Shown here: positions 2,606 through 22,062 of the stretch, in pieces
Layout of the letters: every line of letters begins with the position of its first letter
Position numbering within the stretch: the first letter of the stretch is position 1
DNA from: Planctomycetota bacterium
GTDB lineage: Bacteria > Planctomycetota > GCA-002687715 > CAIWVZ01
Length of the DNA: 64,000 bases
Direction of reading: 5' to 3'
Assembly: GCA_044222185.1 (NCBI GenBank)
Contig: JBGANV010000001.1
Span: forward strand, 1,504,001 to 1,568,000
Program-made: the position numbers and the translations under genes
Notes under the pieces: generated by a model
What the model saw: the letters and a program-made list of their open reading frames with translations, nothing else
Database searches by the model: none
Told to the model about the DNA's origin: nothing

Positions 2606-2621
2606 TCTCCCCGATCGCGCC

Positions 2622-3775: not shown

Positions 3776-3856
3776 CGTAGGTTCCGGGTTTCGGAGAGAA
3801 CCGGACCAAACGTTCATCCCAGGCGTCTCCCCTGACGGCAATGCCAGGAGACTCGG

Positions 3857-4252: not shown

Positions 4253-4287
4253 ATCGCGGTGGCGTCGGCGCTGGACCGCCTGCTCCA

Positions 4288-4332
4288 GAAAAGGCGCGAG
4301 ACCGCCCGCACCTTGCGGCGCGAGCGGCCTCG
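4288..4332 (-). terminator. Intrinsic terminator
   Basis: Minus strand CGAGGCCGCTCGCGCC-GCAA-GGTGCGGGCGGTCTCG (16-bp stem, 3 G-U pairs that only work on this strand) followed by CGCCTTTTCT. Confidence 0.7.
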
Positions 4333-4445
4333 TCGTGGGCCCGGGGGCTACGCCCCTCCAACACGGAGGAGGATTGGCGCCGACGAACTCGATGGAGCGA
4401 ACCTTGTATCGTCGGCGACCGGTCAACCGTCTCCCAACCGGACAC
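4288..4445 (-). ncRNA. Candidate structured small RNA
   Basis: Bounded by a sigma54-type promoter and a GNRA-capped terminator; contains consecutive stems (CCGGT/ACCGG, CGCCGACGA/TCGTCGGCG, CCTCC/GGAGG, GGGC/GCCC). Confidence 0.5.
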
Positions 4446-4454
4446 GATCCCCTA

Positions 4455-4472
4455 TTGCATGGGGCGTGCCAA
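4455..4472 (-). promoter_or_regulatory. Sigma54 (-24/-12) promoter
   Basis: TTGGCACG-CCCC-ATGCAA matches TGGCACG-N4-TTGCW with exact GG/GC spacing and one mismatch. Confidence 0.6.
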
Positions 4473-4612
4473 ACGCAGCACGGGCCGAACGACGGCGAAA
4501 AACGGGTGTTTTTCCGCGCGACCATCGCAGTGGACCGGCGCCGATCACGCCGAGGACGACGCGGTGAATGTCCCGTGAAGAGGACGCTCCACGTCCACGC
4601 CGAAGGTCGGAT

Positions 4613-5992: not shown

Positions 5993-6027
5993 GCGGCCAT
6001 GGTACGGAGGCAGCGTTCATCCGTCGA

Positions 6028-6057
6028 TTGCCCATGCCGATCTCCCCCGGCTACACT
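6028..6057 (+). promoter_or_regulatory. Putative sigma70 promoter of the nucleoside operon
   Basis: TTGCCC-N18-TACACT in the divergent gap upstream of the 5'-nucleotidase gene. Confidence 0.4.
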
Positions 6058-6096
6058 CCGGCCCACCACGTCGAGCAACGGACGCGGTCACAACCC

Positions 6097-7734
6097 ATGA
6101 TGCAAGCCTGCTTGAACCTCCGATCGGGTGTGCGCCAGACCCGGCCGCTCGCCCGAGCTCTCGGCCGATTCACACAGGGGTTGGCGCTCGCGATGGGCCT
6201 CGCGCTCGCGCTCGTCGGGCAGGAGAGCCGCCCGGCCACCGTGTCCCTCGTGATCCTTCACACGAACGACGTCCATGGGCAGCTCCACTCCGTGCCCGAC
6301 TCGAGGGGACGCGGGGCGGACCGAGGCCCCATGGGGGGGTACCAGGAGCTCGTCACCGCGATCGACGAGGAACGGTCCAAGGTCGCACACAGCGTGCTCG
6401 TGGACGCAGGTGATTGGTTCCAAGGCACTCCCGAGGGAACGCTCAGCCGGGGACGCTGCGCCGTCGAACTGATGAACGCGGCCGGGTATGACTTCGCGGC
6501 GATCGGAAACCACGACTTCGACTGCGGGCAGGACAACCTCGCCGACCTTCTCGAGCTGGCTCGTTTCCGGCCGTTCGCGCGCAACCTCTCGGTTGGGGGC
6601 GCTGCCGGCGACACGCCATCCCCCGCGACGCGACTGGGGGCGGTGCTCGACGGCAGAGTGCTCACTCCCCAACCGGTCGTGGTCGTCGACGGCTTCCGCG
6701 TCGCGTTCGACGGCCTGCTGTCGGAGGAGACGCCGCGCATCAGCTCGAAACGGGTGATGGAAGGACTCGGCGTCGGCGCTGAATCGGACGGCGCGACGCG
6801 CGCGGTGCTGATGACGAAGGGCGCCGGCAAGGCCGACGCCCTCGTCCTCGTCAATCACGTCGGCAAGGACAACAACGTCCAGATTGCGCGCGACCATCCC
6901 GAGATCGACGTCGTGATCGGCGGGCACAACCATCGAGACGTGCTCGAGTCGGGCGTCGTCGTCGAGAGCACGGGCGCACTCATCGCGCAGGCGGCAGCGA
7001 ATTCGCAGGCCCTGGGCATCGTGACGCTCGAGATCGACCCCGTCGCGAAGAAGATCGTCTCGAAGAAGGCCCGTCTCCGACACATCGCGGCGAACCCGGC
7101 CGTGGTGGTCCCCCGGATCGCTCCGATCATCGAGCGACACGAAAAGGCCGTCGCAGCGCTCATGGACGTTCCCGTGGCGAACGTGCCGGTCGCGTTGACG
7201 CGCGAGTGGACGCTCGAGAAACCCTCCCCGCTGGCGAGTTGGATGACGCAGGTCATGATCGACCGCACTCACGCCGACGTCGCGATCCACAACGCCGGTG
7301 GCATCCGCGCCGCGATCCCAGCCGGCGCCGCCCGCGTCCGGGAGCTGTTCCAGGTTTCGCCGTTCGGCAACCGCCTCGTCGTGATCGACGTCACGGCGAA
7401 GGACGTCCGTGAGGTTTGCGAGCGGAGTGCCAGGAACCCGTCGCGAGGGTGCCACATCCGCGGCATCGAGGTTCACTGGACGCAGACCGGCGAGGGTCCC
7501 GTACAGGTCACGAAGCTCGTGAGCAAAGGGAAGGTGCTATCCGACGGAGATCGCCTCCGCGTCGCGACGACGGACTTCCTCGCTGGCGGCGCCGACAACT
7601 TCCCGAGCTTGCGGAGCGCGGCCCCGGTCGAAGACCTGGGGATCACGCTCCTCGACGCGACGCTCGAGGCGGCGCGCTCACAAAAGACCGTCACCGCCCC
7701 GGACGGAAACGCCTGGGTCCGCGATACGAACTGA
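6097..7734 (+). CDS. Exported bifunctional metallophosphatase/5'-nucleotidase
   Basis: HTNDVHG, DAGDWFQG, GNHDFD, GGHNH motifs; C-terminal domain NAGGIRA, PFGN, DFLAGGAD; hydrophobic signal segment; start uncertain. Confidence 0.9.
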   Translation: MMQACLNLRSGVRQTRPLARALGRFTQGLALAMGLALALVGQESRPATVSLVILHTNDVHGQLHSVPDSRGRGADRGPMGGYQELVTAIDEERSKVAHSVLVDAGDWFQGTPEGTLSRGRCAVELMNAAGYDFAAIGNHDFDCGQDNLADLLELARFRPFARNLSVGGAAGDTPSPATRLGAVLDGRVLTPQPVVVVDGFRVAFDGLLSEETPRISSKRVMEGLGVGAESDGATRAVLMTKGAGKADALVLVNHVGKDNNVQIARDHPEIDVVIGGHNHRDVLESGVVVESTGALIAQAAANSQALGIVTLEIDPVAKKIVSKKARLRHIAANPAVVVPRIAPIIERHEKAVAALMDVPVANVPVALTREWTLEKPSPLASWMTQVMIDRTHADVAIHNAGGIRAAIPAGAARVRELFQVSPFGNRLVVIDVTAKDVREVCERSARNPSRGCHIRGIEVHWTQTGEGPVQVTKLVSKGKVLSDGDRLRVATTDFLAGGADNFPSLRSAAPVEDLGITLLDATLEAARSQKTVTAPDGNAWVRDTN

Positions 7735-7748
7735 TCGGACGATTTCGC

Positions 7749-9029
7749 ATGGAACGAGTTCAGAGCGCGTTCGGCGTGTTCGCGATGATGGGGTTCGCCT
7801 GGCTGCTTTGCCCCGCCGACCGCCGCAAGCACGTGAATTGGCGGATGGTCGGCACGGGACTCCTGATCCTGATCGGGGTCGCGCTTCTCGTGCTCAAGAC
7901 GCCCGTGCGCAACGGCTTCAGCGGGGCCAGCGATGCCGTCGACACGTTGCTCCAATTCAGTGACGCGGGCGCCCAGTTCCTCTTCGGAAGCCTGGCGAAG
8001 ATCCAGGAACCCTGGGGAATGGTCTTCGCGTTCCGGGTACTTCCCACGATCATCTTCTTCGCGGCGCTGATGTCCCTCCTCTACTACGTCGGGTTGATGC
8101 CGCTCATCATCCGCGTCCTGGGCCGCATCCTCGCGAAGGTCCTGGGGACCAGCGGCGCCGAGAGCTTCTCCACCGTGGCCGACATCTTCGTCGGTCAAAC
8201 GGAGGCGCCCCTTGCGATCCGCCCCTACATCGCGACGCTCACGCAGTCCGAACTCCTCGCCTGCATGGTCGCTGGATTCGCGACCACGGCCGGGGGCGTG
8301 CTTGCGGCCTACGTGCAGATGCTCCACGACCTCGTCCCGGACGTCGCGGGGCACTTCATCGCGTGCAGCGTAATGTGCGCGCCCGCATCCCTCGTCGTGG
8401 CGAAACTCGCCATGCCGGAGACGGACAAGCCCAAGACGTCCGGAATGACCCAGATCACCGTCCCGCGCTCCGGCTCGAACGTCTTCGACGCGATCGCAGC
8501 CGGAACGACGGACGGCCTCCAGCTCGCGCTGAACGTCGGCGCGATGCTCATCGCGTTCGCGGCTCTCGTCGCCCTCCTCAACGCGCTCCTCGGCTGGATA
8601 GGCGGTCTGCTCACGACGTGGACGCATGGCGCGATCCCCTTCGGACCGGAACACCCCCTGGACCTCCAGACCGTGTTCGGTTGGATCTTCTACCCGATCG
8701 CATGGCTCCTCGGCGTCGACGGGAAGGACGCCTTCAAGGTCGCGGGGCTCCTCGGTGAAAAGACGGCCATGACGGAGTTCATGGCGTACCAGCGCATGAG
8801 TCTCGCGCTGAAGGCCGACCCCGCGTGGATCTCCGAGCGGTCGCGACTCGTGGCGTCCTATGCGCTGTGCGGGTTCGCGAATTTCGCCAGCATCGGCATC
8901 CAGATCGGCGGGTATGCCGCGCTGGCTCCCGAACGGCGAAGCGACCTTTCTCGCCTCGCGTTCCGCGCCATGATCGGCGGCTTCCTCGCCACGTGCATGG
9001 TGGCGTGTCTTGCCGGAGTCTTCCTGTGA
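7749..9029 (+). CDS. nupC: Na+/H+ nucleoside cotransporter, CNT/NupC family
   Basis: FAFRVLPTIIFF, FVGQTEAPL, NVGAMLIAF, ALCGFANFASIGIQIGG motifs. Confidence 0.92.
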   Translation: MERVQSAFGVFAMMGFAWLLCPADRRKHVNWRMVGTGLLILIGVALLVLKTPVRNGFSGASDAVDTLLQFSDAGAQFLFGSLAKIQEPWGMVFAFRVLPTIIFFAALMSLLYYVGLMPLIIRVLGRILAKVLGTSGAESFSTVADIFVGQTEAPLAIRPYIATLTQSELLACMVAGFATTAGGVLAAYVQMLHDLVPDVAGHFIACSVMCAPASLVVAKLAMPETDKPKTSGMTQITVPRSGSNVFDAIAAGTTDGLQLALNVGAMLIAFAALVALLNALLGWIGGLLTTWTHGAIPFGPEHPLDLQTVFGWIFYPIAWLLGVDGKDAFKVAGLLGEKTAMTEFMAYQRMSLALKADPAWISERSRLVASYALCGFANFASIGIQIGGYAALAPERRSDLSRLAFRAMIGGFLATCMVACLAGVFL

Positions 9030-9850
9030 ACCCAGCCCTTCGCGCCGTCATCGCCGTCGCTCGCCAGCTCCACGAAGAGTCCCACGCTCCCGCTCCGCGC
9101 GTGGGGTTCATCCTCGGCTCGGGCCTCGGCGGCCTGGCGGATCGGATCGAATCCAAGACCGTCGTATCGACGAAGAAGCTCCCCGGGTTCCCACAAAGCA
9201 CGACGCCTGGCCACGAGGGCAGTCTGATCTTCGGAATGCTGAACGGCGTTTCCGTCGCGGCGCTCAAAGGGCGAATCCACGTCTACGAGGGGCACTCTCT
9301 CGCAACCGCATCGCTCACGGCGCGAGCGCTGTGCGGTCTGGGCATCAGGACGCTCGTCGTCACCAACGCCGCGGGGGCCCTCCATGCCGACTGGCGTCCT
9401 GGCGAAGTCATGCTGATCCGGGACCATCTGAACCTGCTCGGCGGCTCGCCCCTCGAAGGCGCGAACGACGATGGCCTCGGCGCACGCTTCGTCGACATGT
9501 CGGCGTGTTACCCGCCGGCGCTCCGTGCGATCGCGAAGCAGCACGCGAGGGCCTGTGCGATCACGATGCACGAAGGTGTCTATGCCGCCGTGCGCGGACC
9601 GCAGTACGAGACACCGGCCGAGATCCGCATGCTCGGGCTGCTCGGTGCCGACACCGTCGGCATGTCGACCGTTCCGGAGGTCATCGTTGCCGCGCACATG
9701 GGTGTGCAGGTCCTGGGCCTCTCGGTCGTCACGAACGTCGCCGCCGGCCTCACGACAGCCAAGATCCACCACGAGGAAGTGATCGACACCGGCAACAAGG
9801 TGGCCTCGGGTCTCTCGGACCTCATGCATCGGATCGTGCCGGAACTCTGA
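9026..9850 (+). CDS. punA: Purine nucleoside phosphorylase (trimeric PNP family)
   Basis: ILGSGLG, GRIHVYEG, TNAAG, GPQYETPAE, VGMSTVPEV; GTG start overlaps nupC stop. Confidence 0.93.
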   Translation: MNPALRAVIAVARQLHEESHAPAPRVGFILGSGLGGLADRIESKTVVSTKKLPGFPQSTTPGHEGSLIFGMLNGVSVAALKGRIHVYEGHSLATASLTARALCGLGIRTLVVTNAAGALHADWRPGEVMLIRDHLNLLGGSPLEGANDDGLGARFVDMSACYPPALRAIAKQHARACAITMHEGVYAAVRGPQYETPAEIRMLGLLGADTVGMSTVPEVIVAAHMGVQVLGLSVVTNVAAGLTTAKIHHEEVIDTGNKVASGLSDLMHRIVPEL

Positions 9851-9881
9851 GAGGCTCACGGCCTCGCGAAGGACCCGCCCC

Positions 9882-10292
9882 ATGAACGTCGACGACCTGA
9901 TCGCCCTGGCCCGCAAGGCGCGCGCGCGCGCCCACGCGCCCTACTCGAAGTACAAGGTCGGGGCCGCGCTGCTCGGTCGCGACGGCCGCGTCTTCCTGGG
10001 CTGCAACGTCGAAAACGCGTCCTACGGCCTCACGGTCTGCGCCGAACGGAACGCCTACTTCCAGGCCGTTGCCGCCGGCTGCACGCAGTTCACGGATCTC
10101 GCGGTCGTGACGCGGGACGGGGCCTCCCTCTGTGGCGCCTGCCGGCAGGTGGCGCGAGAGTTCGGGACCGAACTTGCGATCCACCTCGCTCGGCCCACGG
10201 GTCGGGCTCACGGAACGACCCTCGCAAAGCTCCTGCCGGATTCCTTCGGCCCGCGCTTCACGCGCTGGCGCTCGCCCTCGAAGACCCGCTGA
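9882..10292 (+). CDS. cdd: Cytidine deaminase (tetrameric type)
   Basis: APYSKYKVGAA, GCNVENASYGLTVCAER, CGACRQ zinc motif. Confidence 0.93.
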   Translation: MNVDDLIALARKARARAHAPYSKYKVGAALLGRDGRVFLGCNVENASYGLTVCAERNAYFQAVAAGCTQFTDLAVVTRDGASLCGACRQVAREFGTELAIHLARPTGRAHGTTLAKLLPDSFGPRFTRWRSPSKTR

Positions 10293-10319
10293 GGCCATCG
10301 GAGGTCCGATCCGCCGGGT

Positions 10320-11102
10320 TCAGCCCTTGACCGCGTAGCCGATCAACGGGCTCGTGAGCCCCAGGCCCGTCCGCGCGCCGACGAGAGCGGGCGGCTCGAT
10401 GCCGAGCTCTCGCTTCCACCATTCCGCGTCCGTGAACACGGCGACCACGGGTTCGCGATCGATGTCGTGAAGGAACACGCGTGTTCCGGGGGCGAGTGCG
10501 CCCCAAAGCGCGCGGATGCACGAGCGGAAGCTCTCCTGCAGATCGACGTCCCAGAACGCAGCGGCGATCGGCGTGGCAGAGAGCTGGGGGAGCGACTGAT
10601 CGAACCAACCCTTCACGAAGCGCGTGCGGTCGATACGCCCGAACCGCTTCACGGTCGTCGTGACGAGGTCCAGACGCCCCTGGTACTCGCCCTTCTCGAA
10701 GTCCTTCTTCTTCTCCCAGTGATCCGAATCGGCGACGTCCGGAAGCCCCTCGAACGAATCGCACACGACGAGCTCACGCCCTGCAAAGGCGGCCGCGTGT
10801 CCGAGCTTGGCGCTGCTGCCGCCGAGGAACGCGCCGCATTCGATCACGACGCCGGGTTGCGCGGGCGACAGCTCGATCACTGACTCCATCACGTGGAGCA
10901 GTTCGGCTGGATTGTGACCGCATTCGACGCGCAGGTGGATCCAGATCGCCCGGGCCGCGAGCGCGACCCGCGTGCCGACACCGGCGCGTCGTCCAACGAG
11001 ACCACGAGCCACGAACGCGACGTGCGCCGGGAGCGCGACGAGGACCGCACCAAGCTGCCAGCGGAGGAAGTAGAGGGCACGGTGGAGAGGCGTACGGCTC
11101 AT
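10320..11102 (-). CDS. TylF/MycF/NovP-family O-methyltransferase
   Basis: VIECGAFLGGS, DSFEGLP, VKGWFDQSLP, DVDL, HD motifs. Confidence 0.8.
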   Translation of the reverse strand: MSRTPLHRALYFLRWQLGAVLVALPAHVAFVARGLVGRRAGVGTRVALAARAIWIHLRVECGHNPAELLHVMESVIELSPAQPGVVIECGAFLGGSSAKLGHAAAFAGRELVVCDSFEGLPDVADSDHWEKKKDFEKGEYQGRLDLVTTTVKRFGRIDRTRFVKGWFDQSLPQLSATPIAAAFWDVDLQESFRSCIRALWGALAPGTRVFLHDIDREPVVAVFTDAEWWKRELGIEPPALVGARTGLGLTSPLIGYAVKG

Positions 11103-11229
11103 GCGTGCCGGCAGGCTAACGCGTCACGGCCAGGAAACTCCGCGAGGCCGGCGCCGCGCCAGTTCGCGAAGCGGCGGTGGGCCATAGGCGCGGAGTCTCA
11201 GATCACTGCGTGCGCACTGGCGTGAGATC

Positions 11230-12843
11230 TCAGGGCAGCGGCCATCCCTGCGGCTTGTTGCGGTACCGGACCGTGAGGTACGTCGACCGGTATGCGGCCA
11301 TCGGGACGCCGGGCGCCGTGAGATAGGTAACGAGTACGAACATCTCGTCGTGAGGCGTCGCGCTCCCCGCGAGCGGGATCGTCAGGTTGTTGAACGTCGG
11401 CTGGCGCTGTCCGAGCGTGTAGCCATGGGGAAACGCCGCCGGGTCCAGTGCCACAGTGCCGATGATCGCCTCGTACCCGGGCGTGGCGAGGGCGTTCGAG
11501 ACGAACGCAATCGGGCCATCGGTGGTGTACGTGCCGGGTGCGAACGGGACCGGGGTGTTGTACTGCCAGCTAGCGCTGTTGAATGTGGCGAGCCCACCTT
11601 GCGCTCGAAAGAGTCCCCAGCCGTTCGGGACGAATATGCCGTTCTGGTCGAGCTTGATGTGACAATTGAAGTTGGTGTTGGTGTACACGTCGACGACCGA
11701 GAAAACGCCACCGTCCAGCTCATTGATGGAGAGCGAGCGCTTCGAGACGTAGTTGTTCCCCCAAACCGTCCTGCGGAGCGGGATCGTCTCCGTGAGCTGC
11801 AGCGTCTCAGCCGGATCGTGAATGCGGATGTCGCCGCGGCGATCGGACGAATTCGGCGGTGGGTTGCCGCTGATCTGCGGCAGATTGATTTGGGCTGCGG
11901 TCGCCCATACGTTCAGTCCGTCGAAGTGGAACCCCGTCGGCGGGTTCGGAACCGATCCGAACAGGATCTGCGGAACGAAGCTGTACAGCGTGTTCGCGGT
12001 GATCTGCATCGGGTAGCCGCAGTTCGAGATGTCGTTGCCGCTGACGACGCACGGGGACCCCGCCGCAACACCGATGACGGCAGCGCCGTCCGATCGAACG
12101 GAGATTGCGTTCAGGACGTCACCATTGCCGAAGCCCCAGAACGAACCCGGGATGGCGATCATCACGTTCGACGGGCCGTTGCTCCAGAGCACGTCGCACG
12201 AGTTGAAACCGGCCAGCGCCCCCCCCATGCTTCGGATCGCCGACACGGACGTGGCGCTCACCGTGAACAACACCGGCAGAGCGGGTGACATCTCCCACGA
12301 CAATCCCTCGAGGTCATCGGAAGTCGACGCCCCCAGAGCCGCAGTCACCTCGAACGGACCGACCGTTGTCATCTGTGCCACCGGCGTCATCCCCGCCGTC
12401 GCTGGATAGGCGGTGCCCGTACTCATTCCGGAGCTCCAGTCCCAGCCGTACACGCGGTGCTTCTTGTAGATGCTCGGGCTGGTCGTCATCGGGTCGACCG
12501 TCATCTCCAAGCGGTGATGCCTCCCGCCGACGCCGCTCTGAAGGACGCTCCATTCTCCGAAGACGTCGTTCGCATAGGAGATCGCCACGATCTCCACGCC
12601 CGACGGAAGTCCGAGCGCGGCCGGCGTGAGCTGGACCTGGGTCGCCGCCGACGCGGCCGCTCTCGCGAGCTTGCACGCGGTGTCCGGGGCGGTCACCGAC
12701 GGTGAGCCGGCCTTCATCGTGCCCTGGAAGTAGAACCCGGTGTCGTCCGCCGGATCTGGCACGAACTGACCCACGGCAAGGGAGGATAGAGAGGCGATCA
12801 GCGCGCAAATGGCCGCAAAGTGATTTCGCATGCTCTGACTCAC
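11230..12843 (-). CDS. Hypothetical secreted protein, paralog A (paralog of 18913-20562)
   Basis: Signal peptide (start GTG 12843 or ATG 12831); collinear similarity with the 18913 ORF (DTGFYFxGTxKxGSP, GRHHRxExTV, WGNxYVSKRSL, LDPxxFPxGYxLGQ). Confidence 0.85.
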   Translation of the reverse strand: MSQSMRNHFAAICALIASLSSLAVGQFVPDPADDTGFYFQGTMKAGSPSVTAPDTACKLARAAASAATQVQLTPAALGLPSGVEIVAISYANDVFGEWSVLQSGVGGRHHRLEMTVDPMTTSPSIYKKHRVYGWDWSSGMSTGTAYPATAGMTPVAQMTTVGPFEVTAALGASTSDDLEGLSWEMSPALPVLFTVSATSVSAIRSMGGALAGFNSCDVLWSNGPSNVMIAIPGSFWGFGNGDVLNAISVRSDGAAVIGVAAGSPCVVSGNDISNCGYPMQITANTLYSFVPQILFGSVPNPPTGFHFDGLNVWATAAQINLPQISGNPPPNSSDRRGDIRIHDPAETLQLTETIPLRRTVWGNNYVSKRSLSINELDGGVFSVVDVYTNTNFNCHIKLDQNGIFVPNGWGLFRAQGGLATFNSASWQYNTPVPFAPGTYTTDGPIAFVSNALATPGYEAIIGTVALDPAAFPHGYTLGQRQPTFNNLTIPLAGSATPHDEMFVLVTYLTAPGVPMAAYRSTYLTVRYRNKPQGWPLP

Positions 12844-12938
12844 GTCGAACGGAAGATTGGCGGATTGACGGTCATGGGTGTGGCCCAGGCGAACCGCAGC
12901 GCAGGACCAGACCGGGACAGGAAGCAGGGTTTCACCAT

Positions 12939-12973
12939 TACTTGGGAGCCCGTCAAAAATCCGGACTCGAAAA
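12939..12973 (-). promoter_or_regulatory. Conserved bipartite motif, candidate ECF promoter (copy 1)
   Basis: TTTT-N3-GTCCG-N16-CCAAGTA; CCAAGTA follows a 36-nt gap after the kinase A stop, as in copy 2. Confidence 0.5.
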
Positions 12974-12981
12974 CGCGGAGT

Positions 12982-15501
12982 CTACTCGAGGGGCCTCGCC
13001 GGACGGACACCCACGTCCCGAGCCGTGTCCGTTTCCATCTGGAAATTGCGGCAACTGCTCCGTGAATCGACCACGTCGGAATGCATGGACCCGCCCCGGA
13101 CGATCCGCAACCGCTCGGAGACCGCGGGTGTCCGCAGGCCATCGCCGCGGCGGGGTGCAGCCGCGGCGTAGCTGCGGACGAGATCGTCCTCGCACCATTC
13201 CGCCACATTTCCGTGGCAATCGAACAAACCGATCGGGTTCGGTCGGAACGAGCCCACGGGTGCGTGGAGGTGACGGTGGTCGTCGAACGGCGCGGGGCGA
13301 ATCACAGTCCAATAGGAGGGTCCCATCTCCACCCCCGCGATGTTGGCGAAGCCCTCGGTGTCCGCCGGCTGTCGGCCGCAAGACCACGGCGTCGACGTCC
13401 CACCGCGACACGCCATCTCCCATTGCGCCTCGGTCGGCAGCGCCATCCCGGCATGGGTGATCCGCGTCTTCGCCTCCGTCCATGCGATGAACTCCACCGG
13501 GTGCAAGAGCGTCACGGAACGGCCCTCGTCCGTTCCGGACCCATGCAGGGTTCCGGGCGGGTAGTAGGACGGGTTCCGCCCCTCGTCGAGACGGGCCCAT
13601 TGATCCTGCGTCAGCTCGTACTTCGAGATGAAGTAGGGGTCCAACGTGACCTCCCCCCCGGGCGCCTCGAATGCCATGTCGGCCCATTGGTCATCCTCGG
13701 ACGCGCCCAACTCGAAGTTCCCGCCTGGAAGCAGGACCAGAACGATGCCGGCCCCCAGGGCGGCGACTCCCCCGCGCTGAGGGTCGAACGGAGGTCGCGC
13801 GCCGCTCTCCACGTGCCAGAACTCGTACAGCCCCGTCGACTCGTTCAGACCCAATGGGATCAAACCCAACTGAGGCCGGACCTCGAGCCCGTGGTACTTC
13901 GGGGAGGTTCGGATTGCCTGGATGCATCGAGCCCAATCGCTCGCAGCGTCATGACGCAGCGTGCGCTCCTGTAGCGTGGACGCACGCTGCCGTCGCTCGG
14001 CGACCATCGCCCGTCGGTCGCGCAGCCGACCAAGTCCCGCCAGGAGCTCCGACAGGACGTCGTCGAAGTAGGCATCCGTTTCCAGAGCATAGTGCCGGGA
14101 CTCGGGTCCGTCGGGGATCGCTCCGTCGCGCAAGCGGGAGCGGGCCGACTCGTGAAGCGTCTGGCGCGCGAGCTTGGCGTCCGCTTCACGAAGCCACTGA
14201 TCGCAGGGCTCGACGAGCGCCGGCCCGACGGGCCACAGCCTCACCTCCCGATCGAGCAGGTCCCGAACGTGACGGATGTCCGCAACTTGATCGCGTTCCT
14301 CGATCGTTTGCGCCTGACGCGCGTTCATGTAGGCGAAGCTGCAGAGGCCGGCGGCGAGCACGACGATGAGGGCGGACGAGGCCGCGGCCATTCCCGGCTC
14401 CCGCCGGGCCCAGGAAAACAGCCGTACGAGGGGTCCCGCCGGCTTCGCGTGCACGGGCTCGAACTCGCACACGCGCCGGAGGTCGTCTGCGAGATCGAGC
14501 GCGGTGCGGTAGCGAAGACGGAGATCCGGGGCGAGCGCCGTCGCGATCACGACATCCAGAGACCGGCTCGTCGCCGGGTTCAGGCGCCGTGCGGAGGTTG
14601 GCGACGACATCGCCGATGCGCGCAGGGCCTCGAACGTCGGGCCCTCGCGCGGGAGCCGTCCCGTCACGAGCTGATAGAGGATCACGCCGAGGGCGTAGAC
14701 GTCGACGCGGCGATCGATGCCGGGTTGCCCCAGGATCTGCTCCGGCGCCATGTAGGGCGGCGTTCCGAACACGGCTCCCGACGCGGTGAGCGTCGCGCCA
14801 TCCGACACCTCGTCGCGTGCGAGCCCGAAGTCCAGCACGACGGGATGTCCGTCCCGCCCGACGATGATGTTGGACGGCTTGAGGTCCCGGTGGATCACGC
14901 CGGCCTCGTGCACGACGTGTACCGCCCGCGCAACCTCTTCGATGAACCGGGCGTGCCCGTGAAGGTCGGCCCGAGTCGCCCGCGGCAGGCCCGAATCAGC
15001 GAGTCGCGCCGACAGCGGCGCCCCTTCCACGTACCGCATCGCCATCCACGCCCGTCCGCGGTCTCGACCGACCTCGAACACGGTGCAGACACCGGGGTGA
15101 TCCACGCGCGACGCAGTCTCGGCTTCACGTCGGAATCGCAGCAGCGCGTCGTCAGCGGACGCGAATCCGCGATGAAGGATCTTCAATGCGACCTGCCGCT
15201 TCAGCCGCGTGTCATCGGCGAGCCACACTTCGCCTTGCCCGCCGCGACCGATGGGGCGAAGCAGCCGATATGCGCCGACGCGCAAGGGATCGTCTGCCGG
15301 CGGTGGCGATTCAGCTGTCGTACCATCCGGGTGCTTCGACCCGCTGGTGACGGCATCCCGAGCCCGCTGCGCAGCCGCGGTCCGCGCCGGATCCCCGTCG
15401 CCGAACGTCGACAAGTCGTCCGTGCGGCCGTCAGCCTTGGCCGCGAGCAACCGCTCCAACGCCTCGATCTCCAGTCTCTCGTCCCGGTCCTTCGGATCCA
15501 T
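12982..15501 (-). CDS. Transmembrane Ser/Thr protein kinase with C-terminal FGE-sulfatase (SUMF1/CLec-fold) domain, paralog A
   Basis: GRGGQG, VALK, HRDLKPSN, DFG, GTPPYMAPE; TM helix; FGE motifs LPTEAQWE, GLFDCHGNVAEW, RGGS; MDP start shared with paralog B. Confidence 0.92.
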   Translation of the reverse strand: MDPKDRDERLEIEALERLLAAKADGRTDDLSTFGDGDPARTAAAQRARDAVTSGSKHPDGTTAESPPPADDPLRVGAYRLLRPIGRGGQGEVWLADDTRLKRQVALKILHRGFASADDALLRFRREAETASRVDHPGVCTVFEVGRDRGRAWMAMRYVEGAPLSARLADSGLPRATRADLHGHARFIEEVARAVHVVHEAGVIHRDLKPSNIIVGRDGHPVVLDFGLARDEVSDGATLTASGAVFGTPPYMAPEQILGQPGIDRRVDVYALGVILYQLVTGRLPREGPTFEALRASAMSSPTSARRLNPATSRSLDVVIATALAPDLRLRYRTALDLADDLRRVCEFEPVHAKPAGPLVRLFSWARREPGMAAASSALIVVLAAGLCSFAYMNARQAQTIEERDQVADIRHVRDLLDREVRLWPVGPALVEPCDQWLREADAKLARQTLHESARSRLRDGAIPDGPESRHYALETDAYFDDVLSELLAGLGRLRDRRAMVAERRQRASTLQERTLRHDAASDWARCIQAIRTSPKYHGLEVRPQLGLIPLGLNESTGLYEFWHVESGARPPFDPQRGGVAALGAGIVLVLLPGGNFELGASEDDQWADMAFEAPGGEVTLDPYFISKYELTQDQWARLDEGRNPSYYPPGTLHGSGTDEGRSVTLLHPVEFIAWTEAKTRITHAGMALPTEAQWEMACRGGTSTPWSCGRQPADTEGFANIAGVEMGPSYWTVIRPAPFDDHRHLHAPVGSFRPNPIGLFDCHGNVAEWCEDDLVRSYAAAAPRRGDGLRTPAVSERLRIVRGGSMHSDVVDSRSSCRNFQMETDTARDVGVRPARPLE

Positions 15502-15578
15502 CGCGCTTCCGCCCTCCCGACGGTTTCCCTTCGACGATCGCTCCCCGCTCACTCCCGCGGATCAGGTCCGTGCGTCGA

Positions 15579-16163
15579 TCACGCGAAGAGGTCCGTGGGT
15601 GGACGCCAGTCCTGGATCTTCCGCACGAGCCTCTGCCATCGCTTTTCCACGGCATCCCGCGTGACGCCGAGAACTTCGGCGGTCTCCGAATGGCCGAGCC
15701 CCTCGAGCCCCCGATAGATGAGGAGCATTCGGTCGTCGTCATCCAATTCGTCGAGCTTCGTGACGAAACCTCGCAGGCCTTCGTCGCGGGCAAACCGGCG
15801 ACTCACACTGGTGACGTCGTCTGGCAGTTGATCCAGCAGGTCACGACTCGACACGTCGAGGTGGGCGGGCTTGGCACCCGGCCGGGCGGCGCTGGCGAGA
15901 ATCTCGCGCAGGACGTTGTTCGCGACTCCGAACACCCACCGCCGGAAGGCACCACGCGAAGGATCGAAGGTGTGGAACCTCTCGTAGGCGCGGCAGCAGA
16001 CCTCCTGCACGAGGTCCTCCGGGTCGATGAAACCGCGTAGGGCGCGCCTCACGCGGAGCGAGGCCCAGGCCACGAGGGTCGGTGCGCACTCCGTGTAGAG
16101 CGCGGCAAAACTCGGCTGCTTCGTCGTCGGACCGGGTGACGATCCCGCGTCGGGTGGCGGCAT
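15579..16163 (-). CDS. ECF sigma factor (kinase-associated type)
   Basis: Region 2 DPEDLVQE...FRRWVFGVANN; linker TSVS; region 4 EGLGHSETAEVLGVTRDAVEKRWQR. Confidence 0.9.
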   Translation of the reverse strand: MPPPDAGSSPGPTTKQPSFAALYTECAPTLVAWASLRVRRALRGFIDPEDLVQEVCCRAYERFHTFDPSRGAFRRWVFGVANNVLREILASAARPGAKPAHLDVSSRDLLDQLPDDVTSVSRRFARDEGLRGFVTKLDELDDDDRMLLIYRGLEGLGHSETAEVLGVTRDAVEKRWQRLVRKIQDWRPPTDLFA

Positions 16164-16247
16164 GGGCGACAGACTATCAGAAGCGCCGCGTCCGCCGATA
16201 CCTTCGCCAGAGCGCGGACTCGCCGCTGCCGATAGGATGCTCCGCCT

Positions 16248-18776
16248 ATGGACCCCACCGAACGCGACATCGCACTCGACATCGAAGCCCTCGAGCTCGT
16301 GCTTTCAGCTCGGGCCCAAGGCAGGCACGAGGATCTCGTCGAGTTCGCCGCTCGCGACGAAGCCCATGCGGCCGCAGCCGCGCGGACGCGCGCGGCGCTC
16401 GCGAACGGCTCCACCAGACCCGAGCAATCGCCGACCTGGAGTGCGGACCCGCTCACGCTCGGCGCCGCTACGTTCGGGCCCTACAGGCCGATCCAATCAC
16501 TCGGCCGGGGCGGCCAGGGCGAGGTCTGGCTGGCCGAGGACACCCGGCTCAAGCGCCACGTCGCGCTCAAGATCCTCCATCACGGGCTCGCCATGGCGGA
16601 CGACGCACTCCTGCGGTTTCGCCGAGAAGCCGAGGTTGCGTCGCGACTGGATCACCCCGGGCTGTGTACGGTGTTCGAGGTGGGCCGCGAGGGCGGACGC
16701 GCGTGGATGGCCATGCGATACGTCGAAGGCGAATCCCTCGCCCGCCTCATCAGCGCACACCCGGAGCCACCGTCGAACCGTGCGGACATGAACGGCTGGC
16801 TCAAGCTCGTGGAGGAAATCGCACGGGCCATGCACGCCGCCCACGAAGGCGGGGTGATCCACCGCGACCTGAAGCCGTCCAACGTCATCGTCGGGCGCGA
16901 CGGTCATCCCGTCGTCCTCGACTTCGGACTTGCGCGAGACGAGGTCTCCACCGGATCGACGCTGACCGCCACGGGCGCGGTGTTCGGCACGCCCTGGTTC
17001 ATGGCTCCGGAGCAGCTCCTCGGCCAGTCGACCGTGGACCGGCGCGTCGACGTGTACGCCCTGGGCGCGATCCTTCATCTCGCGTTGACGGGCCATTATC
17101 CCCGCGAGGGGCCGACGTTCGAGGCCATTCGGGCGCTGGCCCACGCTCCCATCACGCCGCCGCGGAGCCTGAACGCGGCGATCGGACGCCCGCTGGAAAT
17201 CGTCATCCAGACGGCACTCGCCGTGGATCTCGGACTGAGGTACCGCACGGCACTCGACCTCGCCGAGGATCTCCGTCGTGTCCGCGAACTCGAGCCGATC
17301 CTGGCGCGACCCGCCAGTGCACTGACCAGGCTCGCATTCTGGGCCCGGCGAAATCGCGCGCTTTCCACGTCGCTGGCTGCGCTGTTCCTCGTCCTCGTCG
17401 CGGGCCTCGCGGCCGTCACGTACTACGCGGTGTTGCAGCAGCGCACGCTGAACGAACGCGACCAGGTCTCCGACATCCGAAGCGTCAACGCGCTGCTGGA
17501 ACGGGAGGGCGACCTCTTCCCCATCGGTCCCACCATCGTCGCAGCCGGCGAGACGTGGCTCCGCGACACGGACCGCTACCTCTCTCGCGAGGAGATGCAC
17601 CGCGCGTCACGCGAGCGCCTGCGGACGCAGGCGCTCGGCACCGGACCCGACAACAGGCCCAGATACGCGGACGAGGTTCGCGCGTACACGGACGACGTGC
17701 TGTCGGACCTGATCACGTCGCTGGAGCGGCTCCGCGCACGCCGTACCGTGGTCGCGGAGCGCATCGATCGCTCGCGCACGCTCGAGGCGCGGACCATCGG
17801 CCCGGAAATTCAGGGCGCATGGAACGAGTGCATCGCAACCATTCGGTCATCACCGAAGTACGCCGGGCTGGAACTGAAACCGCAACTCGGACTGGTCCCC
17901 CTGGGTGTGAACCCTCAGTCCGGCCTCTACGAGTTCTGGCACGTGGAGACCGGGTCCCGGCCAGTGTTCGACGCTGCACGCGGAGGCGCCGTCCCAGGTC
18001 CCGGCATGGGCGTGACGATGGTCCTCCTGCCAGCCAGCACGTTCGTCATGGGCGCCTCGCCCGACGATGAGTTCGCCGACACACGTTTCGAGGTTCCGAC
18101 GCAGAACGTCACGCTCGGTGCGTTCTTCATCTCGAAGTTCGAGTTGACGCAGGATCAGTGGTCGCGCGTCGACGGGGGGCGGAACCCGTCCTATTACTTC
18201 CCGGGAACGGACCGAGGCAGCAGCACCAAGGAGGGGTTGTCCGTGACTCTGCTCCACCCGGTCGAATCGGTGTCGTGGCTCGAGTCCGTGCGCGTCCTTG
18301 GTCGGGTCGGCCTCGCCCTGCCCACGGAATCCCAGTGGGAATACGCGGCGCGCGGAGGAACGACCACGCGGTGGACCCCCGGCGACCGTCCAGAGGAACT
18401 GGAGGGGTTTGCGAACGTCGCCGGGCTCGAGCGGGACCCGTCGTTCTGGGTCACGATCAAGCACCCCCCCTTCAACGATGGCCGCGTCCTTCATGCCCCT
18501 GTCGGGACCTACAAGCCGAATCCGTTCGGTCTCTTTGACTGCTGCGGGAACGTCTGCGAATGGTGTGCGGACATGCTCGTTCGAAGCTACCCGAGCGTGC
18601 GGCCGCGCTCGGTCGACGGCCTGCGCACACCGGAAAAGCCGGACCACAACCGGATGATGCGGGGCGGATCGGCCCAATTGGAGATCGCACTCACGCGTTC
18701 CTCGCAGCGCTTCTGGCAACTCGAAAACTCCACCGCCAGGGATCTGGGCCTGCGCCCCGCGCGCCCCGTCGACTGA
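16248..18776 (+). CDS. Transmembrane Ser/Thr protein kinase with C-terminal FGE-sulfatase domain, paralog B
   Basis: Same kinase motifs (HRDLKPSN, DFG, MAPE), TM helix, LPTESQWE, GLFDCCGNVCEW; full-length collinear with paralog A. Confidence 0.92.
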   Translation: MDPTERDIALDIEALELVLSARAQGRHEDLVEFAARDEAHAAAAARTRAALANGSTRPEQSPTWSADPLTLGAATFGPYRPIQSLGRGGQGEVWLAEDTRLKRHVALKILHHGLAMADDALLRFRREAEVASRLDHPGLCTVFEVGREGGRAWMAMRYVEGESLARLISAHPEPPSNRADMNGWLKLVEEIARAMHAAHEGGVIHRDLKPSNVIVGRDGHPVVLDFGLARDEVSTGSTLTATGAVFGTPWFMAPEQLLGQSTVDRRVDVYALGAILHLALTGHYPREGPTFEAIRALAHAPITPPRSLNAAIGRPLEIVIQTALAVDLGLRYRTALDLAEDLRRVRELEPILARPASALTRLAFWARRNRALSTSLAALFLVLVAGLAAVTYYAVLQQRTLNERDQVSDIRSVNALLEREGDLFPIGPTIVAAGETWLRDTDRYLSREEMHRASRERLRTQALGTGPDNRPRYADEVRAYTDDVLSDLITSLERLRARRTVVAERIDRSRTLEARTIGPEIQGAWNECIATIRSSPKYAGLELKPQLGLVPLGVNPQSGLYEFWHVETGSRPVFDAARGGAVPGPGMGVTMVLLPASTFVMGASPDDEFADTRFEVPTQNVTLGAFFISKFELTQDQWSRVDGGRNPSYYFPGTDRGSSTKEGLSVTLLHPVESVSWLESVRVLGRVGLALPTESQWEYAARGGTTTRWTPGDRPEELEGFANVAGLERDPSFWVTIKHPPFNDGRVLHAPVGTYKPNPFGLFDCCGNVCEWCADMLVRSYPSVRPRSVDGLRTPEKPDHNRMMRGGSAQLEIALTRSSQRFWQLENSTARDLGLRPARPVD

Positions 18777-18784
18777 TCCCGCCA

Positions 18785-18819
18785 TTTTTTTGTCCGACCT
18801 CGCGCGCGATCGCCAAGTA
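18785..18819 (+). promoter_or_regulatory. Conserved bipartite motif, candidate ECF promoter (copy 2)
   Basis: TTTT-N3-GTCCG(18792-96)-N16-CCAAGTA(18813-19), same spacing from kinase B stop as copy 1. Confidence 0.5.
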
Positions 18820-18912
18820 GCCAAATCGGCTCACGTGGATGTGTTGCGCAACGACGGTGCTGCGGACACGATTGGGCCGACCGCCTCCAACCACTACAGC
18901 AAGAACTTCATC

Positions 18913-20562
18913 ATGACGCCCAAGCTTCCTCCGATCCTTCTCCTTCTCCTTCTCTCCAGCGGCGCGCTCGTCGCGCAAACGTTCGTGTCGGACCCGGCGG
19001 CCGATACGGGCTTCTATTTCCACGGCACGCTCAAGAACGGCTCGCCCACGTTCCCCGGATCCGACACGGCGGCGAAGCTGGTGCGGACGGGTGCGCCCAC
19101 CACGCCGTCACAGGTACAGCTGTCACCCGCGGCGCTGGGTCTGCCCGTGACCGTCGAGATCCTGGCCGTCACACACGGCGATGACGAATTCGGCGAGTGG
19201 AACATCCGACAGGGCGGCGTCAACGGTCGCCACCACCGGATCGAGTACACGGTGAACCCGAGCGCGACGGGAAGCGGATACAAGAAGTACAAAGTCTACG
19301 GATACGACTACGTGATGGGCTGCAACGACCCGGCGGCGCCGGGCGTAGCCTCGGTCTGCCCGCCACCACCGCAAGGCGGCCTCAGCATCACGGGCCCGTT
19401 CGTCGTCGACGCGGCGACCGCCCCTTCGACGTCGGACGACTACGAGGGCCTCGCACACGACCAATGGGCGTTGCTTCCGGTCTATTACACCGTGAGGCCC
19501 TCATCCGTGACTGCGATCCGGAACATGGGCGGCGCGCTCGCGGGGTTCAACTCCTGCGACATCCTCACGTCGTACGTGGATTCGAACGGCCAGCTCGCCG
19601 TCGCCATCGCACTGGTGGGAAGCGCTCTCGGTTTGAATGCGAACGACTCGATCGATTCGCTCGCGGCCATGTGGAACGGCGCTGGAATCATCGGTCTCGC
19701 ACCGGACTCCTATTCCGTCGTGAACGGGCTCCAGATCGGAGTCGCGCCTCACACGACGCTCGCGCTGGGGAATTACCTCTACAGCTTCGTGTCGAGCGGA
19801 TCGCTCCCGTATTGCACCTCTCCCCCGCCCGGTGCTTACCACTTCGACACGCTCAACATCTGGGCGACGGCCGCGGATCTCGGCCTCCCGCCCATCGGCG
19901 TGGGCTCGAACCCGGTCAACTCCGACTGCCGTGGCGACGTGCGTGTAGCCGATCCGTCCGAAGCCTTGCAGGTGACGGAGTCCCTGCCTCTCCGCCAGTC
20001 CGCGCCATGGGGCAACGACTATGTCTCGAAGCGGTCGCTCTGCATGAACAACCTCGACGGCTCCGTGTTTGGTGCTGTTCAGGTCGCGCTCCAGTCCGCG
20101 GCAACGCTCCGCGTCAACCTCGCGGGGTCCACGACGTACCGATCGATCAGCTGGGCACTTTTCCGGGCACCGGGAGCGCTCGATGCTGTCCCACCCTCGA
20201 TGTGGAACGCCACGGAGACGGTTCCGTTCGCGCCACCGCCGCACGCGAGCGCAACCCAGGTTGGCTGTCCGCTGCACCTCTCGGAGACGTACCTCGGCGC
20301 CCCGACCGGTACGAGCGCCATCATCGGCAACGTCACGCTCGACCCGATCAAGTTCCCGAGCGGTTACGCCCTGGGCCAGCTCTCATCGACGACGCAAGCT
20401 GCGGCGATTCCGTTCACTGCGCCCGCAGTCCGGTCGGATGAGATGTACGTGGTCGTCGCGTACGTGACGCCCCCGGGGAGCAACATCCCCGTGCCGAAGC
20501 GCACCATCGTGATGACCGTGAAGTACCGGAACCGGCCGGCAGGCGCCTGGCCGGCGCCGTGA
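18913..20562 (+). CDS. Hypothetical secreted protein, paralog B
   Basis: Signal peptide MTPKLPPILLLLLLSSGALVA-Q; collinear with 11230-12843 including the C-terminus TVKYRNRPAGAWPAP. Confidence 0.85.
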   Translation: MTPKLPPILLLLLLSSGALVAQTFVSDPAADTGFYFHGTLKNGSPTFPGSDTAAKLVRTGAPTTPSQVQLSPAALGLPVTVEILAVTHGDDEFGEWNIRQGGVNGRHHRIEYTVNPSATGSGYKKYKVYGYDYVMGCNDPAAPGVASVCPPPPQGGLSITGPFVVDAATAPSTSDDYEGLAHDQWALLPVYYTVRPSSVTAIRNMGGALAGFNSCDILTSYVDSNGQLAVAIALVGSALGLNANDSIDSLAAMWNGAGIIGLAPDSYSVVNGLQIGVAPHTTLALGNYLYSFVSSGSLPYCTSPPPGAYHFDTLNIWATAADLGLPPIGVGSNPVNSDCRGDVRVADPSEALQVTESLPLRQSAPWGNDYVSKRSLCMNNLDGSVFGAVQVALQSAATLRVNLAGSTTYRSISWALFRAPGALDAVPPSMWNATETVPFAPPPHASATQVGCPLHLSETYLGAPTGTSAIIGNVTLDPIKFPSGYALGQLSSTTQAAAIPFTAPAVRSDEMYVVVAYVTPPGSNIPVPKRTIVMTVKYRNRPAGAWPAP

Positions 20563-20592
20563 CTTCAGCGGTGACCCGCGACCCCGCCGACG

Positions 20593-22062
20593 TCACAACC
20601 CTATGGTTGCGGTCGTCGCCGGCGAGTTGGCCAGAAACGCACCGAACCCCGCGCCCGCCGTGAACGCGAGCGACACGACGTCGAAGGTGAGCGTCGGGCC
20701 GGTGCCAGTCGTCGGAAACGTGAGCGAGTAATTACCTCCGGCGTCCGCGAGCACGTGAAGCGGCGCCGTCCCGAGCGGGAGCGAGATCTGGCCCAGGATG
20801 TCGCCCGCTCCGGGCCCGACGGCGAGCCCGAAGAGTGGCCCGGTTCCCGTCGGCACCGCCGGAAGGAACGAGACGACGTTGAACAACTCGCTCCCTGGCG
20901 GCGCGTTCGTCACGGCGACGGTCACCGACTGACCCGGTCCGGCTTGAGTCACCGTGATCGCGTAGAGACACAGCGCGCGGATCTGCGCCGAGAACCCGGG
21001 ATGGAGGATCGAGGTCCCCGCATTCGCGCCTCCTGTCGAAGTGCACCCACCATGCGTGTGGACGCCCACGACGGATTGCGTCGCCTCGTGAATCACGAGC
21101 GCGCCGGAACTCCCCCCGGTGGTGTCGACGGCGTGAAGGATCGAGTTGGGCCCGGCGCCATTCAAGGATGTGACGGTCGCCAGGTGCGTCTGGTTCGTTT
21201 GATTCAGCGCGCCGGTCGCAGTGCCGAAGCCCGTCACGCGCACGGCGCTCGCCAGTTGAGGCCCGGTCGTCGACAACGGATAGAAGCCCTGCACCTGCGC
21301 CGCGGAGAGCCCCGTGGTCGTGTTGGCGAACAGTCGGCCAACGGCCCAGTCGTCGCCCACGCCTGCGTCGGCGAACGACAGGCTCGACATATCCATCGGG
21401 TACTGGTCCTGCGGCGACGGATGGACGACGGAGCCATTGGCGTTGGAGGGCGGACAGTTGAACTCGACCGTCACCTGGGCGCCACCGCTCACGCAGTGCC
21501 CCGCGGTGGCGAAGCACGAGGAGATGCTGACGAGGCCGCCTGAACAGATCGCCGTGCCGCCGCCACCGCCGACCAGAAGCCTTCCGACGCGCGGCTCGGT
21601 GGACGGTACGCGGTCGTCAGTCGGACCGCAGATGGAATCGATCGCCGCTGGTGCGGGAAACCCCGCGTCATAGCCAGAGAGGTTGACTGAAGCCGTTGCA
21701 AACGGAGCGACGAGCAGTTCCACGCTCACCGTATCGCCGTTGAAGAACGCGGAGGCGTGGGCCCAGCGATCGAGGGTCTGGGAATCGAGGACCTGGCTCA
21801 CGTCGTCGCGAAGGCCATGGATGCGGATCGCGCATCCGGCCGGAAGCGTGGGCTCGTCGAACCACACGCGCATCCACGCGGCACCAGGATGCGAGACGAA
21901 GATCGGCGGCGCGGACACCACCGCCGCACTCCCGTTCGTGACGTTCCCCGTGCCCGCGGTAGCCGGCACGAAGATGCCGGCGGGAACGGGGTCCGATTGG
22001 GATCGGCCGGTCCCGACGGCGGCGGCACACAGGAGTACGACGAGGCATGGACGGTTGATCAT
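20593..22062 (-). CDS. Secreted trypsin-like (S1) serine protease with pro-domain and C-terminal beta-rich domain
   Basis: Signal peptide; triad motifs TAGHC, DWAVG, DTTGGSSG; VGVHTHGGC. Confidence 0.85.
   Translation of the reverse strand: MINRPCLVVLLCAAAVGTGRSQSDPVPAGIFVPATAGTGNVTNGSAAVVSAPPIFVSHPGAAWMRVWFDEPTLPAGCAIRIHGLRDDVSQVLDSQTLDRWAHASAFFNGDTVSVELLVAPFATASVNLSGYDAGFPAPAAIDSICGPTDDRVPSTEPRVGRLLVGGGGGTAICSGGLVSISSCFATAGHCVSGGAQVTVEFNCPPSNANGSVVHPSPQDQYPMDMSSLSFADAGVGDDWAVGRLFANTTTGLSAAQVQGFYPLSTTGPQLASAVRVTGFGTATGALNQTNQTHLATVTSLNGAGPNSILHAVDTTGGSSGALVIHEATQSVVGVHTHGGCTSTGGANAGTSILHPGFSAQIRALCLYAITVTQAGPGQSVTVAVTNAPPGSELFNVVSFLPAVPTGTGPLFGLAVGPGAGDILGQISLPLGTAPLHVLADAGGNYSLTFPTTGTGPTLTFDVVSLAFTAGAGFGAFLANSPATTATIGL

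Follow-up and report, generated by a model that had tools for sequence, protein, structure and literature searches.

Sigma factors of the extracytoplasmic function (ECF) type are in some groups linked to a kinase and typically lack an anti-sigma factor, as in ECF43, ECF59-ECF62, ECF217, ECF267 and ECF283 (PMC7826278), and direct activation of an ECF sigma factor by phosphorylation has already been published (PMC13147305). The pairs EcfK/PknS of Xanthomonas citri and EcfP/PknT of Vibrio parahaemolyticus each place an ECF sigma factor without an anti-sigma next to a Ser/Thr kinase that spans the membrane once and carries an extracytoplasmic sensor (PMC13147305), and the planctomycetal groups ECF59-ECF62, ECF217, ECF267 and ECF283 have a neighboring Ser/Thr kinase and typically no anti-sigma (PMC7826278). 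Among the accessory domains of Planctomycetota kinases, FGE-sulfatase ranks third in frequency and is mostly periplasmic, giving rise to receptors of a kinase-FGE (SUMF1-like) type (PMC11032199). Here, we analyze a 64,000-nucleotide stretch of a Planctomycetota bacterium genome (assembly GCA_044222185.1, contig JBGANV010000001.1, positions 1,504,001 to 1,568,000; hereafter the window), in which one ECF sigma gene is accompanied by two kinase-FGE genes, kinA and kinB, each followed by a gene for a secreted protein, secA and secB. Our analysis suggests that an ECF gene, a divergent kinase-FGE gene and a gene of this secreted family form a conserved unit, to which the window adds a second kinase-secreted pair.

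The locus resembles each of these systems in part. Like them, it has an ECF gene beside Ser/Thr kinases and no anti-sigma gene, and kinA and kinB share the architecture of the published kinase-FGE receptors. The ECF43 proteins EcfK and EcfP carry an uncharged, QTTA-type sigma-2.2 region (PMC13147305), whereas that of the window ECF is an acidic DxxDxxQE. The window further differs from these pairs in its duplicated kinase-partner pair and in a conserved secreted third component, of which the available portions of PMC13147305 make no mention; a secreted protein downstream of the kinase is likewise not mentioned for the kinase-associated ECF groups in those of PMC7826278. Compared with other kinase-FGE receptors, the kinases of the window belong to a small subclade with the secreted family downstream. 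An earlier note on this DNA, made from the sequence alone, did not recognize the unit as described. This needs qualification, as both ECF-kinase pairs and kinase-FGE receptors are published (PMC7826278; PMC13147305; PMC11032199, in their available portions); the novelty lies in the secreted family and the mirrored duplication. The open-access papers searched contained no description of the secreted family, nor of a triad of ECF, kinase-FGE and secreted protein. A two-part receptor has precedents in LuxP-LuxQ, TorT-TorS and ChvE-VirA, where periplasmic-binding-protein partners bind the outer domain of histidine kinases. The likeness would be one of proposed logic only, since the kinase here is of the Hanks type and the partner is modeled as an all-beta protein without a match in the Protein Data Bank (PDB).

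The distinguishing part of the secreted protein, a family-specific N-terminal domain (N-domain), was located at 14 loci: the two of the window, G000:C16, G002:C97, G007:C176, G007:C36, G013:C51, G013:C13, the metagenome locus L045, G227:C50, G196:C77, G365:C446, G365:C877 and G201:C9. At 12 of the 14, a kinase-FGE gene lies directly upstream of the secreted gene on the same strand; this count includes G002:C97 and G007:C36, where the contig ends and the FGE-bearing C-terminus of the kinase alone is visible. An ECF gene is divergent from the kinase gene at every one of the nine loci where that side can be seen, identified by Pfam in the window, L042, L011 and L045, and by BLASTP in L044, L010, L144, L145 and L147 (46-49% identity to the window ECF). 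The kinase linkage and the divergent ECF gene together point to an ancestral unit in which the ECF gene faces away from a kinase-FGE gene followed by the secreted gene. The window consists of this unit (ECF, kinB and secB) and a second kinase-secreted pair behind the ECF gene, which no other locus seen possesses. Within the host genome, the secreted family follows three of the 28 kinase-FGE genes, namely kinA, kinB and a copy on contig C16, and these are the three most alike. The earlier note had suggested testing whether the family lies consistently downstream of kinase-FGE genes, and had inferred that each kinase has a dedicated secreted partner. At the level of gene linkage, both points are borne out by this linkage and by the kinase clade and matching trees described below, and the contrary case that it had named, homologs occurring mostly without kinase or ECF neighbors, did not arise. 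A different arrangement of two kinases was seen at L011 (G013:C51), where the module's ECF gene is followed on the same strand by a second receptor kinase gene with TPR repeats (13201-17869), and one sigma gene is thus flanked by two kinases of different types.

The linked kinases are also related by descent. In a full-length kinase tree, built as a quick tree rather than by a careful search, 11 of 12 linked kinases form one clade (Shimodaira-Hasegawa-like approximate likelihood ratio test support of 96) that excludes 14 unlinked host paralogs. A tree of the FGE domain only supports the grouping of the A and B copies (97/94) and of these two with the C16 copy (90/93). The kinase and partner trees agree in uniting the A and B copies, C16 with L045, and G196 and G365 with G227, the first two groups with support of 100 and 99 in the partner tree, and the within-genome paralogs of G000 and G013 sort alike in both. 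Patristic distances in the two trees are correlated (r = 0.63), a value reached in 0 of 10,000 permutations. The incongruence that the earlier note had envisaged as grounds for doubt is thus not seen, the main groupings being common to both trees. The sister relationship of A and B in each tree indicates that kinA-secA and kinB-secB descend from a single pair that was duplicated as a unit.

Within the window, the ORF (open reading frame) list and translations give the gene order secA, kinA and ECF on one strand, and kinB and secB on the other (Table 1); the start of kinA was chosen as the Met that aligns with Met1 of kinB in a pairwise alignment. In Pfam, both kinases match Pkinase and FGE-sulfatase, and the ECF matches sigma-70 regions 2 and 4. 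The spacers inside the block measure 26-77 bp between the ECF gene and kinA (77 bp for the likely kinA start, on the same strand), and approximately 136-138 bp between kinase and secreted gene in each arm. None of them could accommodate a gene, which leaves no place for a separate anti-sigma gene within the five-gene block, and no such ORF was detected there. The earlier note was thus accurate on the gene order, on the 84-bp gap and on the absence of a visible anti-sigma gene. Its description of the arms as collinear paralogs also stands, with kinA and kinB 59% identical over 846 columns (E = 0, pairwise alignment), and secA and secB 45% identical. Its mirror symmetry holds for the paired arms and fails as strict symmetry about the gap, because the ECF gene sits within the left arm; kinB is divergent from it, and kinA lies behind it in the same direction. 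The arrangement is real rather than an artefact of assembly, as contigs of four independent metagenome runs on activated sludge, belonging to two studies and at least 99% alike, span the ECF-kinB, kinA-ECF, kinA-secA and kinB-secB junctions. The 84-bp gap must hold the promoters of both the ECF gene and kinB. A scan for the sigma-70 consensus found 0 sites in this divergent region, and the four terminator-like sites in the scanned region equal the number expected from shuffled sequence.

Table 1. Genes and intergenic region of the five-gene block, in window coordinates.
Feature	Position	Strand	Description
secA	11230-12831	-	Secreted protein, 533 aa from M at 12831; ORF extends to GTG at 12843
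kinA	12982-15501	-	Kinase-FGE, 839 aa from M at 15501; ORF extends to 15552
ECF sigma gene	15579-16163	-	194 aa; sigma-2 and sigma-4 only
Divergent intergenic region	16164-16247		84 bp separating the ECF and kinB start codons
kinB	16248-18776	+	Paralog of kinA, 842 aa; ancestral position, divergent from the ECF gene
secB	18913-20562	+	Paralog of secA; ORF opens at 18790, signal-peptide start M at 18913

The secreted proteins belong to a family of their own. secA and secB are 45% identical in an alignment of 541 columns (E = 5e-141), have a hydrophobic segment at the N-terminus only in a hydropathy scan, and match no model in Pfam or NCBIfam. All family members carry a signal peptide that ends in a small-x-small motif followed by a nearly invariant Gln (column Q22; secA 12766-12768), with which the mature proteins should therefore begin; the signal peptide of secA ends in AVG before this Gln, and that of secB, from 18913, reads MTPKLPPILLLL...LVA before it. 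In secA, an all-beta N-domain (residues ~23-345) precedes a C-terminal Ig/FN3-like domain (~348-524). The model of the ~320-aa N-domain is of good quality (predicted local distance difference test, pLDDT, 83.8; predicted template modeling score, pTM, 0.86) and has no convincing match in the PDB, the best being a Foldseek hit at E = 8.5e-3 with TM of at most 0.26 and a VIA hit at Z 5.2. The family N-domain may thus be considered a candidate new fold on the strength of this model. All top rows of the fold search were weak matches to folds of the beta-propeller type, and no propeller fold is claimed on that account. The whole-protein model matches solved folds via its C-terminal Ig-like domain only (Z 6-7, root-mean-square deviation 2.8-3.9 Å over approximately 90-110 residues), with Foldseek TM of at most 0.18. 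By hhalign, this C-terminal domain is homologous to the extreme C-terminus of FG-GAP proteins (97%, E = 9e-11), and it alone is matched in these FG-GAP-bearing proteins, the N-domain giving no match.

The C-terminal domain has a wide distribution in its own right. The last ~160 aa (secA 11230-11800; secB 19960-20562) recur at the C-terminus in proteins of the same order that are exported but otherwise unrelated, including FG-GAP propellers, metallophosphatases and an arylsulfotransferase (loci L022, L024, L028, L029, L038 and L041). No Pfam model covers this Ig/FN3-like domain, and matches occur in 20 of 23 genomes of the order, most of them to that domain alone. Since such diverse proteins share it, this module is generic to exported proteins, and what distinguishes the family is its N-domain; the C-terminal domain may serve as a sorting or anchoring tag.

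Full-length members are rare. A full HMMER pass over 1.84 billion representative sequences returned nine proteins of 492-575 aa, including secA and secB, and a word-indexed search recovered these two alone among 5.8 billion clusters. In the ESM Atlas, the secreted protein was matched to unnamed clusters with scores of 0.84 and 0.78, too low to be worth following. Of 23 genomes belonging to the same order, four contained full-length relatives in a profile search, one relative being the third host copy on contig C16, and the N-domain was detected in eight genomes of a 401-genome sample of the phylum. A metagenome scan with the kinase alignment yielded 80 loci, among which L045 alone held the secreted family, most of the others being shorter contigs or having more distant kinases; at L046, where the kinase is 40% identical, the genes downstream are unrelated. 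An N-domain also occurs in another setting at L148 (G201:C9), where a 1601-aa protein without a Pfam match (5664-10466, + strand) contains one copy at residues 955-1194. The divergent gene (2060-5740, - strand) encodes a cytoplasmic kinase with AAA/NACHT-like and TPR domains, of the STAND type.

kinA and kinB have the hallmarks of Hanks-type Ser/Thr kinases. They score 135 and 129 bits against Pfam Pkinase, and retain the catalytic K, HRD, N, DFG and APE residues, with columns K107, H204-R205-D206, N211, D224-G226 and E254 invariant in 45 aligned homologs including both copies. kinA comprises a cytoplasmic kinase domain, a transmembrane segment, a juxtamembrane ectodomain of ~190 aa, and a domain of the FGE-sulfatase fold. 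Each kinase has one strong hydrophobic segment in the hydropathy scan (369-394 in kinA, 369-398 in kinB) with the FGE domain C-terminal to it, and the ECF protein has none; kinA has another, weaker hydrophobic stretch, which corresponds to the first strand of its FGE domain. The FGE-like domains score 131 and 116 bits against Pfam PF03781, match solved FGEs in phmmer at E about 1e-16, and are related also to a Treponema surface protein, PvdO and PorK/GldK. Ectodomain homologs number at least 874 at E of 1e-20 or below. A catalytic FGE has an active-site cysteine pair after an RGGS motif, and this pair is missing from both kinases. At the positions that we take to be the catalytic cysteines of human FGE (2afy, an entry that itself has Ser at the second), the aligned residues are L and T in kinB, and S and S in kinA. 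Because these cysteines are absent, the FGE-like ectodomains appear to be non-catalytic, acting as binding or sensing modules rather than as enzymes. In a rough gene call, the host genome has 132 kinase-domain proteins and ~28 kinase-FGE genes. An ECF gene occurs no more than a few genes away from about half of these kinase-FGE genes, the layout being divergent, convergent or co-directional, and several of them have genes for other signal-peptide proteins downstream.

The sigma factor is a member of the ECF family by several measures, exceeding the Pfam cut-offs for Sigma70_r2, Sigma70_r4_2 and Sigma70_ECF and scoring 84.1 bits against NCBIfam TIGR02937 (cut-off 42.9). Its nearest NCBIfam subfamily is the Planctomycetaceae-specific TIGR02984, against which it scores 81 bits, below the cut-off of 183.75. 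In ECF43, an uncharged QTTA-type motif replaces the acidic residues of the sigma-2.2 DxxD, and its threonine is phosphorylated; EcfK is activated at this site and at a second site in the linker (PMC13147305, available portions). The window shares with ECF43 a co-encoded Hanks-type kinase, here on both sides of the sigma gene, and the lack of an anti-sigma gene. It does not have the uncharged sigma-2.2 with its phospho-acceptor Thr. The region instead reads IDPEDLVQEV, a canonical acidic DxxDxxQE, and (D/E)PEDLxQE is kept in all four module ECFs aligned, so the window ECF is not ECF43-like. The linker that joins sigma-2 to sigma-4 contains invariant S105, S106, T118 and S119 (SS...TSVxRRxARDE; SS...TSVSRR in the window). 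Since the acidic surface of sigma-2.2 is kept, these linker residues would be the likelier target of a kinase, and by analogy the Ser/Thr cluster may plausibly correspond to the linker phosphosite of EcfK.

The retention of a normal acidic sigma-2.2 motif would also suit control by sequestration rather than phosphorylation, in which a segment of ~75 aa ahead of the kinase domain served as a built-in anti-sigma element. This cytoplasmic segment has many invariant columns in the five closest kinases (M..ERD..L.IEALE..L.A.A.G..DL..F), as might be expected of such an element. However, it is not conserved in the more distant kinases linked to the secreted family, the zinc anti-sigma motif H-x3-C-x2-C is absent, with no cysteine in the first ~90 residues of either kinase, and no protein of the cassette matches a Pfam anti-sigma family. 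We consider sequestration highly improbable.

These data allow a mechanism to be proposed in which each single-pass Hanks-type receptor kinase would display a non-enzymatic, FGE/lectin-like domain outside the cytoplasm, and the secreted two-domain protein would be its accessory sensor in the same compartment, either the periplasm or the surface. The signal peptides, the single transmembrane segment of each kinase and the periplasmic placement of FGE domains in other kinases (PMC11032199, available portions) are consistent with a shared compartment. The secreted protein would bind a stimulus and present it to the FGE-like ectodomain, or would restrain the ectodomain; the activated kinase would then switch on the adjacent anti-sigma-less ECF, most likely via phosphorylation, with the linker cluster S105, S106, T118 and S119 as the likelier target, as in the second site of Xanthomonas EcfK. 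In the window, the kinase-partner pair was copied as a unit, with one pair now lying inverted behind the sigma gene, and the arms, being most divergent in their extracytoplasmic parts, would supply two inputs to one sigma factor. From strand and the spacers of ~136 bp, kinase and secreted gene are probably co-transcribed, and we infer that partner and kinase bind, that the ECF is phosphorylated, and that both kinases converge upon it. We offer the whole chain, from secreted sensor partner and FGE-like ectodomain to an ECF activated by its kinase and a duplicate providing a second input, as a tentative model that falls a little short of probable.

Several observations weigh against this model. 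The secreted gene of G365:C877, a recent duplicate of that of G365:C446 in the partner tree, lies behind a DUF4350-like gene with no kinase, and the N-domain of G201:C9 is part of the 1601-aa protein beside a different, cytoplasmic kinase. The partial kinase of G007:C36 falls outside the clade of linked kinases, and the FGE-domain-only tree does not recover these as a single group, its deeper branches being unresolved; the agreement of kinase and partner trees stems in part from shared species history. The acidic sigma-2.2 means that the ECF sequence does not demand phosphorylation, 25 of the 28 host kinase-FGE paralogs work without the secreted family, and the kinase-secreted spacers could equally hold a promoter. 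Finally, the C-terminal domain is common to many unrelated exported proteins, which fits an exported surface product equally well.

Some of these points favor the chief rival explanation, in which the secreted protein is an output within a small local regulon of the ECF, and the FGE-like domain serves the kinase to sense something else. Control of adjoining genes is common among ECF sigma factors, the spacers of ~136-138 bp are roomy enough for a promoter, the C-terminal domain suggests export or anchoring, and the orphan copy of G365:C877 persists without a kinase. Autoregulation of ECF sigma factors is also stated in the available portions of PMC7826278. Against this, the secreted gene tracks the kinase and not the sigma gene, lying directly behind the kinase on the same strand at 12 of 14 loci, and kinase and secreted gene moved together at the duplication. 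Sequence motifs expected of a shared regulon were also lacking where they were sought: alignment of three kinase-secreted spacers gave no conserved block and no common promoter-like motif, and a gapped 5-mer/4-mer search of nine regions between divergent ECF and kinase genes (the window and eight orthologous) gave no common motif, the best being present in five of nine and equaled by shuffled sets. The output explanation is in our view unlikely, though it is the main competitor; the remaining alternatives are lesser ones.

The two arms of the window differ unevenly along their length. The kinase domains of kinA and kinB are 71% identical, the ectodomains 56% and the cytoplasmic N-terminal segments 47%, and the secreted proteins 48%. 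That divergence between the arms is highest outside the cytoplasm (71% vs 56% vs 48%) fits diverging input specificity, without being proof of it. It would also suit a system of self-recognition, in which the secreted protein is a released signal that the cognate kinase detects, on the same cell or on sister cells, and the duplicates are orthogonal channels: the secreted protein (48%) and the ectodomain have diverged faster than the kinase domain, branches in the partner tree are approximately twice as long as those in the kinase tree, and partner and kinase are co-inherited. However, faster extracytoplasmic change is common under relaxed constraint, and independent sludge runs contain the same alleles with scattered single-base differences only. 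A 500-aa two-domain protein with a generic C-terminal domain of the export type would moreover be an unusual signal molecule, and such a receptor-ligand system is very unlikely. A more ambitious version of the accessory-sensor model would make the secreted protein the specificity subunit of a two-part receptor, its N-domain docking on the FGE/lectin-like ectodomain, with each kinase having co-diversified with its partner into orthogonal channels and one sigma factor integrating two cues or, at its boldest, recognizing protein signals made by sister cells themselves. In this full form, the idea is decidedly doubtful.

The proposed convergence of both arms on one sigma factor has a rival explanation, in which a single arm signals to the ECF and the second pair is a recent paralog, redundant or with other substrates, gene order alone giving the semblance of two channels. 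It is common for Hanks kinases to have several substrates, the sigma gene has a single kinase, divergent from it, at all other loci (9/9 visible), and the second pair was seen in the window only. Yet kinA lies behind the sigma gene on the same strand at a distance of 77 bp, the classic order of a sigma-regulator operon, and both kinases keep all catalytic residues together with the N-terminal cytoplasmic segment. G013:C51, with its TPR-type kinase, likewise has a second kinase behind the sigma gene. A second pair that does not signal to this sigma factor is quite unlikely.

Planctomycetes carry dozens of FGE-type Ser/Thr receptor kinases, 28 in the host genome alone, and a subfamily tied to one secreted protein and one sigma factor offers a compact, testable handle on what FGE-like domains sense. 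The module described here is a narrowly distributed three-gene unit with an uncharacterized partner family and a unique duplicated layout, and its duplicated kinase-secreted pair provides a natural experiment on the evolution of input specificity. If true, phosphorylation of the linker in an ECF with a normal sigma-2.2 would extend the paradigm of phosphorylation-controlled sigma factors beyond ECF43.

Beyond the block itself, a 489-aa ORF (20593-22062, - strand) is convergent with secB, begins with a hydrophobic stretch at its N-terminus and matches nothing in Pfam; its adjacency to the module is not kept in the other loci examined. Positions 10800-21000 of the window are present at high identity in bioreactor and activated-sludge metagenome runs from several studies, and the host appears to be a recurrent sludge planctomycete.

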